This document shows, piece by piece, positions 39,081-39,464 of a stretch of 64,000 bases of DNA. The DNA comes from Eledone cirrhosa. Taxonomy: Eukaryota. A program made the translations under genes and the position numbers. Location of the stretch: positions 558,001 to 622,000 of the forward strand of contig OZ024766.1 of the NCBI GenBank assembly GCA_964016885.1. Reading direction: 5' to 3'. Numbering within the stretch: position 1 is the stretch's first letter; each line of letters starts with the position of its first letter. The notes beneath the pieces are model-generated. The model saw nothing but the letters and a program-made list of their open reading frames with translations, ran no database searches and was not told where the DNA came from.

Positions 39081-39151
39081 TATTTTATCTGACGAAAACG
39101 CAAATCTCATCTCATGATGATATTTGTTTTTGAAATGCGCATAATAAAATA
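39081..39151 (+). ncRNA. Type I hammerhead ribozyme motif in RPL37 intron 1 (sense)
   Basis: TATTTTAT-CTGACGA-aaacgcaaatctcatc tcat gatgatatttgttttt-GAAA-TGCGC-ATA^ATAAAATA: perfect 8-bp stem I, long stem II and palindromic ATGCGCAT stem III. Confidence 0.82.
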
Positions 39152-39265
39152 CATGGAACTCTTTTAACCATCTTTTGATCTTATATTATAAAGTACCAGT
39201 AATGCACTGGGTAATTGCTGGCCTTGTGCCTAAAGTAGAAACAATTATTCATTTATATATATCTC

Positions 39266-39297
<32 letters not shown>

Positions 39298-39400
39298 ATC
39301 AAAGATTAATAGGGTTCATTGATTACTCAATGAATACAGTTTTACAATAGATTAAAAGCACTCTACAAGAAAGTTTTCTGGAGTTTTTAATATTATTTAT

Positions 39401-39464
39401 ATATTTTATCTGATGAGGACGTATTGGAAAAAAACTACCTTCGAAATATATATAATAAACATAT
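39401..39464 (+). ncRNA. Type I hammerhead ribozyme motif in RPL37 intron 1 (sense)
   Basis: ATATTTTAT-CTGATGA-ggacgta..taccttc-GAAA-TATAT-ATA^ATAAACATAT: G10.1-C11.1 closes stem II, and stem I is 5+4 bp with a bulge. Confidence 0.78.

Follow-up and report, generated by a model that had tools for sequence, protein, structure and literature searches.

Hammerhead motifs in the first intron of RPL37 of Eledone cirrhosa as likely remnants of truncated Penelope-like elements

The DNA analysed here, referred to as the window, is a 64,000-nt stretch of the Eledone cirrhosa genome (assembly GCA_964016885.1, contig OZ024766.1, positions 558,001 to 622,000, forward strand). It contains RPL37 on the forward strand in four exons, and the features of the locus are collected in Table 1. 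Exon 1 ends with the start codon, which is followed directly by GT, and the extent of intron 1 was therefore called from the sequence. The sole genome match to the Ribosomal_L37e model was exon 2 (one match, with 32 of 32 candidates scored). Other host genes were absent from the 40 of 141 window ORFs that were searched against Pfam, which gave a weak GIY-YIG hit and three hits below the cutoff. Searches of the whole window with Rfam at gathering thresholds reported just two tRNA-like SINE heads, and neither a hammerhead nor a snoRNA. Three tRNA-like heads of one SINE family are present (3656-3715, 31763-31820, and 39577-39640), two of them at the Rfam tRNA threshold. Vertebrate RPL37 is the host of SNORD72, and the string ATGATGA at 39115 suggested a C/D snoRNA; this candidate was rejected because the string falls in helix II of a high-copy repeat and is not followed by a CTGA box within about 120 nt. 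Intron 1 also carries a direct duplication of about 300 nt (38048-38663, 97% identity, spacing about 320 nt), and minisatellites were seen 5' of RPL37 (short G-rich unit, 35630-36380), in intron 2 (80-nt unit, 40625-41124), and in intron 3 (unit of about 59 nt, 42350-43750).

Table 1. Features of the RPL37 locus, numbered from the first nucleotide of the 64,000-nt window.
Feature	Positions	Strand	Basis or remark
RPL37 start codon ATG, end of exon 1	37092..37094	+	sequence; GT donor next
RPL37 intron 1, 2,871 nt, GT...AG	37095..39965	+	sequence
Third hammerhead motif, antisense to RPL37	38898..38959	-	relaxed descriptor
Element 1, 5'-truncated 3' end (pseudo-LTR), family A, likely Hydra-type Penelope-like	39016..39187	+	alignment; adjoins (TA)n tract
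Hammerhead motif 1, type I, GC-rich 8-nt palindromic helix III	39081..39151	+	descriptor scan
Piece of unrelated dispersed repeat	39188..39249	+	15 other matches in window
(TA)n/(TG)n microsatellite	39251..39297	.	sequence
Element 2 inverted arm, family B 3' tail reversed	39280..39398	-	95-96% to many copies
Element 2 direct arm, family B 3' end, truncated just 5' of hammerhead helix I	39396..39513	+	sequence comparison
Hammerhead motif 2, type I, AU-only palindromic helix III	39405..39459	+	descriptor scan
Further inverted family B 3' end	39519..39568	-	sequence comparison, folding
RPL37 exon 2	39966..40101	+	Pfam PF01907 Ribosomal_L37e, E=1.2e-22
RPL37 exon 3	41127..41211	+	sequence, reading frame; no Pfam hit on exon 3 alone
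RPL37 exon 4, coding part up to stop codon	45407..45488	+	sequence

An earlier note on this DNA had described two intact sense-strand hammerheads in RPL37 intron 1. Both were recovered by a descriptor scan, which also returned the cut sites that the note had predicted, after 39143 in motif 1 and after 39454 in motif 2, 311 nt apart. Motif 1 consists of an 8-bp helix I, CUGACGA at 39089, helix II, GAAA at 39132, the palindromic helix III, and UA. Motif 2 has CUGAUGA at 39410 and GAAA at 39443, and extends to 39401-39464 if one bulge is allowed. The type I core (CUGAnGA, GAA, A15.1-U16.1, H17, and three helices, open at helix I) is present in each, and every single-stranded core position is retained, as the note had claimed. 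The closing pair 10.1-11.1 is G-C in motif 2, and A-U in motif 1 and most of its family. The Rfam hammerhead models at gathering thresholds reported neither motif anywhere in the window. The strict descriptor returned four motifs in the window against none in each of 100 dinucleotide shuffles, and the relaxed descriptor seven against a mean of 0.03 (60 shuffles); since the shuffles give almost none, the motifs are not due to chance.

A third motif in the same intron, antisense to RPL37, had been passed over, as had the transposon origin and the genome-wide abundance of the motifs. It has a helix I of 7 bp, a helix II of 8 bp after a C-A mismatch, and a helix III of 4 bp with a 1-nt loop, and it belongs to another repeat family (1,647 candidates, of which the best ones scored were 86-98% identical), for which no parent ORF was found in the five loci inspected. 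Further motifs at 12797-12862 (+), 21263-21327 (-), and 33542-33599 (-) have the same build as motifs 1 and 2, and another was found at 21563-21605 (-). Degenerate hammerhead-like cores lie at 25937 (+) and, in RPL37 intron 2, at 40136 (+) and 40326 (+), the last within an older dispersed repeat that is 71-86% identical to 39 other places.

Motif 1 lies in element 1, a member of a repeat family designated family A. The 175-nt 3' end at 39016-39190 shared 94-98% identity with 40 further copies (of 292 candidates, 40 were scored), and the element 1 region was 88-93% identical to the ends of five long copies (loci L028-L031 and L034). The order in L028 is an inverted arm, a direct pseudo-LTR, an ORF, and a second hammerhead, with 3,334 nt between the same-strand hammerheads (a unit of about 3.3 kb). 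L030 contains an uninterrupted 800-aa ORF, which stops about 1.06 kb before the hammerhead, and an 880-nt inverted copy on the 5' side. The family A ORF has the reverse transcriptase (RT) motifs FDIASYY, MGASDS, and YRDD, and is without DKG, DKA, and GxKF. RLRWT (with T for the K of RWK) was found at aa 35 of the L030 ORF, DKT at aa 123, a CxCx5C linker at aa 659, CxxC at aa 759, CxH at aa 787, and LIY...TYFG near the C-terminus, with a single Cys between the two (no CCHH). Judged on these motifs, L030 encodes a single ORF with an RT followed by a C-terminal GIY-YIG-type endonuclease. There was no Pfam hit to the ORF and no hit in a PDB sequence search of solved structures (best E 0.86). Its Atlas neighbours, at 0.96-0.98, were clusters of hypothetical proteins; GIY-YIG was carried by 26-50% of the members in some of these clusters, and RVT_1 by 18% in one. 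Neptune and Naiad were rejected as parents on ORF motifs.

The Hydra clade of Penelope-like elements (PLEs) has the ORF motif set found in family A, prefers (TA)n targets, and tends to be short, generally < 3 kb (PMC8557442). The supplement of that paper lists Hydra-1_Obim (Hydra-1_oBim) of Octopus bimaculoides, with a hammerhead, and the L030 protein is collinear with its protein when compared by eye. A (TA)n target, a 3' hammerhead, and tandem or inverted truncated copies were likewise found in the families described here. Family A is thus likely a Hydra-clade PLE, an assignment made on motifs and by-eye comparison and not on an RT tree, because neither Pfam nor solved structures matched. 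Long uninterrupted ORFs of 775-821 aa from stop to stop, mutually 93-98% identical, occur in L030 (1292-3694), L034, and L031, and this identity suggests recent activity in the genome. A broken RT-endonuclease fragment related to the Hydra ORF was also seen at 22890-23923 (+) of the window (26-56% identity by piece, weak Pfam GIY-YIG).

The hammerhead sequences of families A and B differ from that of Hydra-1_oBim (PMC8557442), helix II being longer here (3 bp, a C-pyrimidine mismatch, and 6 bp) and helix III carrying a perfect 8-nt palindrome with a subfamily-specific sequence. The helix III of the antisense motif resembles that of the published Hydra-1_oBim motif. The unit of about 3.3 kb measured in L028 exceeds the size usual in the clade, and the copy number given below is far above the 'small number of families' reported (PMC8557442). 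Like the hammerheads of metazoan PLE pseudo-LTRs (Cervera and De la Pena 2014, PMC4209133), those described here occur as dispersed single motifs of truncated PLEs and as close inverted pairs, fall into many sequence families in one genome, and have a palindromic helix III suggesting that they act as dimers. Family A departs from those hammerheads in having A-U in place of the conserved G-C at 10.1-11.1, no unpaired base after A9, and a longer helix I (8 bp plus a bulged extension).

Motif 2 lies in element 2, which belongs to family B. Its subfamily differs from that of motif 1 and gave 1,746 pattern matches in the genome. Family B appears tied to an endonuclease ORF through one locus, L103, where the same strand carries, 1.27 kb upstream, an endonuclease fragment that is 50% identical to family A and also has the CxCx5C linker and CxxC. 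The RT and endonuclease pieces of L104 and L105 were dropped as evidence on family B, as they probably belong to other nested families. Together with element 2, the further inverted family B 3' end (39519-39568) is predicted to form a long hairpin that absorbs the helix I extension of motif 2. The 311-nt spacer between the predicted cuts begins with 44 nt of element 1 and the 62-nt piece of dispersed repeat (likely the 3' end of a SINE). The (TA)n/(TG)n microsatellite follows, then the inverted arm of element 2, and last the stretch of motif 2 that lies 5' of its cut. TRF run on 38870-39480 found only (TA)n and an 11-mer, and no tandem unit. The spacer is therefore a mosaic and not a tandem unit, and by similarity motifs 1 and 2 are evidently separate insertions of different subfamilies.

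The two motifs differ in their state of preservation. Motif 1 has a ddG of 3.1, the median of its family, and being wholly typical of a young family it is not decayed. Motif 2, set against four siblings, has a helix II shortened by about 6 nt and a helix I whose 3' strand is 2-3 nt shorter, so that the description of the pair as intact held for both cores and failed for helices I and II of motif 2. Its helix II was the weakest of the 21 family B motifs scored (-0.1 against a median of -6.0 kcal/mol), and in its ability to reach the dimer-ready fold it came 20th of those 21; the pattern and similarity searches by which the siblings were collected are biased to intact copies, and one of the 26 family A motifs and two of the 23 from family B dropped out of fold scoring because the imposed pairs failed. 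From one subfamily to the next, changes at the base of helix II and in the helix III palindrome are compensatory, which indicates that the fold has been maintained in the element lineages. The 8-nt palindrome of helix III is specific to each subfamily, as are the compensatory helix II pairs, while the C-pyrimidine mismatch at the fourth helix II position is common to all; palindromes and helix II pairs could act as a code for dimer partners.

Folding energies were computed with ViennaRNA without tertiary contacts and are for comparative use only. The monomer helix III of both motifs is two A-U pairs and a tetraloop, which falls short of a stable monomer. The probability of the active monomer fold, considering secondary structure only, was 6e-5 for motif 1 and 2e-10 for motif 2, and without tertiary terms this fold lay above the ensemble by about 6 and about 14 kcal/mol, respectively. 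Helix III homoduplexes were at -10.5 kcal/mol for motif 1 and -3.2 kcal/mol for motif 2, against +1.7 kcal/mol for the heteroduplex of the two, in agreement with the previous remark that the palindromes differ and that heterodimers pair poorly. Cross-wise helix I pairing gave +0.2 kcal/mol for the 5' strand of motif 1 with the 3' strand of motif 2 and -3.4 kcal/mol for the other combination; helix I of motif 1 by itself was at -6.1 kcal/mol. Given these helix III and cross-wise helix I values, a dimer in cis is unlikely.

One exact, narrow hammerhead pattern had 23,727 + 23,391 = 47,118 matches in 2.996 Gb, divided near-equally between the strands, and its reversed control had none. As the pattern misses motif 2 and the antisense motif, this number is a lower bound. 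Among the first 100 matches listed, 15 inverted pairs stood head-to-head within 600 nt, and of the 99 neighbour pairs three lay on the same strand within 500 nt. A pattern for a family A end followed by a same-strand core 200-330 nt further on, which fits the RPL37 locus as well, had 155 matches (control 0), overlapping matches inside arrays being counted separately. A second pair pattern had 109 matches (control 1); by eye, a recognisable element end starts 64 of the 100 matches listed, and three of the six loci fetched contained two complete same-strand motifs. In L072 and L074 the same two unlike palindromes as in the RPL37 pair occur in reverse order, 342 and 330 nt apart. Under a uniform model, the presence of two sense motifs in a 2.9-kb intron has P=2.5e-4, a value that counts against mere debris and is offset only by the clustering of insertions that the pair counts show. 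Clustering is expected, since (TA)n is both the target of the elements and what they leave at their own ends.

Head-to-tail arrays of family A 3' ends were seen at two places, L112:2029-2764 (G000:C15; 4.4 x 167 nt) and L113:1737-3065 (G000:C7; 3.9 x 339 nt), each with four same-strand motifs that have identical palindromes. A retrozyme has been defined as at least two consecutive tandem units with a complete hammerhead in each (Li et al. 2026, bioRxiv 10.64898/2026.07.22.740005). Both arrays fall under this definition and are retrozyme candidates from a Hydra pseudo-LTR. The RPL37 pair does not, given the absence of a tandem unit by TRF and the different subfamilies of its motifs.

The earlier note had proposed that cutting at both motifs could release an RNA of about 310 nt able to circularise like a retrozyme monomer. 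Both cores are indeed complete, on the same strand, and 311 nt apart, a size inside the 150-450 nt range of animal retrozymes (PMC7229834), and the locus resembles animal non-LTR retrozymes (Cervera and De la Pena 2020, PMC7229834; Li et al. 2026) in its AU-rich, PLE-derived type I hammerheads about 300 nt apart. Those retrozymes are head-to-tail with the same hammerhead in each unit, whereas the RPL37 pair consists of unlike remnants around a mosaic. The tandem repeat is missing, the palindromes are mismatched, motif 2 is decayed, and the real tandem arrays of family A found elsewhere look different, so the circle found no support and is extremely unlikely.

Regulation of RPL37 output, also suggested previously, fared no better. 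Sense-strand, intronic motifs recall the amniote hammerheads and the CPEB3 HDV-like ribozyme. Amniote intronic hammerheads and the CPEB3 ribozyme are conserved and low-copy, whereas the RPL37 motifs are young or decaying members of high-copy repeats. Co-option by the host, in the manner of conserved mammalian intronic ribozymes, would suit an essential single-copy gene that has sense-oriented motifs in an intron, and intronic ribozymes have been proposed as regulators (PMC6765202). Against it, element 1 is young and up to 98% identical to other copies, the helices of motif 2 are eroding, the intron holds hammerheads in both orientations, and the locus is not distinguished among thousands; there is hardly any chance that it applies.

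The reading that we favour, with a probability of roughly 0.88, is that the motifs are the 3' ends of two separate, 5'-truncated Hydra-type PLE insertions at (TA)n, and that they are likely near-silent passengers that neither form a circle nor regulate the gene. Lunse et al. (2016/2017) reportedly dealt with minimal/palindromic type I hammerheads of metazoan PLE pseudo-LTRs. Cleavage by a single minimal PLE hammerhead was undetectable, and that by dimers was little (PMC4209133); hammerheads of the PLE type are described as acting slowly, as dimers in tandem transcripts (PMC4209133, PMC6765202). By analogy with this literature, the hammerhead of the parent element would work as a dimer: within a tandem transcript, a pair of identical copies would join through their palindromic helix III and excise an RNA of unit length. 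The RPL37 pair would be unable to dimerise likewise, because its palindromes come from different subfamilies and motif 2 is decayed. Both motifs are thus expected to be near-silent in vivo, and any residual cutting would be slow and at motif 1 alone, with splicing likely tolerant of it.

The undecayed, family-typical state of motif 1 counts against its near-silence, and its strong palindrome allows dimers in trans. Motif 1 might therefore cut a small share of RPL37 pre-mRNA, acting slowly as a monomer or pairing in trans, as a homodimer, with another family A RNA or with a nascent RPL37 transcript nearby; motif 2 would be dead and no circle would form. The homoduplex and helix I energies of motif 1 would permit this, as would the single genome match of RPL37 together with the high transcription of ribosomal protein genes. 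A similar hammerhead of axolotl, with a 2-bp helix III and a tetraloop, was 22% cleaved in 1 h as a monomer (PMC7229834). By simple arithmetic, however, that rate corresponds to about 2% in 5 minutes; the active monomer fold lies about 6 kcal/mol above the ensemble, and PLE hammerheads are slow even when dimerised (PMC4209133, PMC6765202). Cut introns, moreover, are able to splice: introns cut by a hammerhead were still spliced, and the fast HDV ribozyme alone blocked splicing (as cited in PMC2995048). Partial cutting at motif 1 is accordingly considered unlikely.

A more speculative proposal, which we hold to be very improbable, is that motif 1 is a sensor of transcription density. Its GC-rich palindrome would pair nascent RPL37 RNAs with one another, or RPL37 RNA with any of thousands of family A RNAs, in a double hammerhead formed in trans. 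Cutting of the intron would then require densely packed polymerases and would dampen RPL37 output, and the palindromes of the subfamilies would serve as a partner code that decides which of the more than 47,000 hammerheads activate which.

Near-silent insertions being the preferred reading, the RPL37 locus itself matters little, its motifs being two of tens of thousands of remnants. It appears to hold new families of a known clade with a known type of ribozyme: PLE hammerheads have been known since 2014, and the Hydra clade, including an octopus member, since 2021. The literature covered, which takes in a minority of subscription journals, contained no paper on these families or on RPL37 hammerheads. 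What the genome adds is an abundance of Hydra elements, reported as few families, which comprise several hammerhead subfamilies and include apparently intact ORFs. The copies are numerous enough for a well-powered comparison of sense and antisense hammerheads within introns, which would bear on the cutting of RNA by PLE hammerheads in vivo. Cleavage of RPL37 pre-mRNA by motif 1 in trans, if it took place, would be a new route from retrotransposon debris to the output of a host gene.
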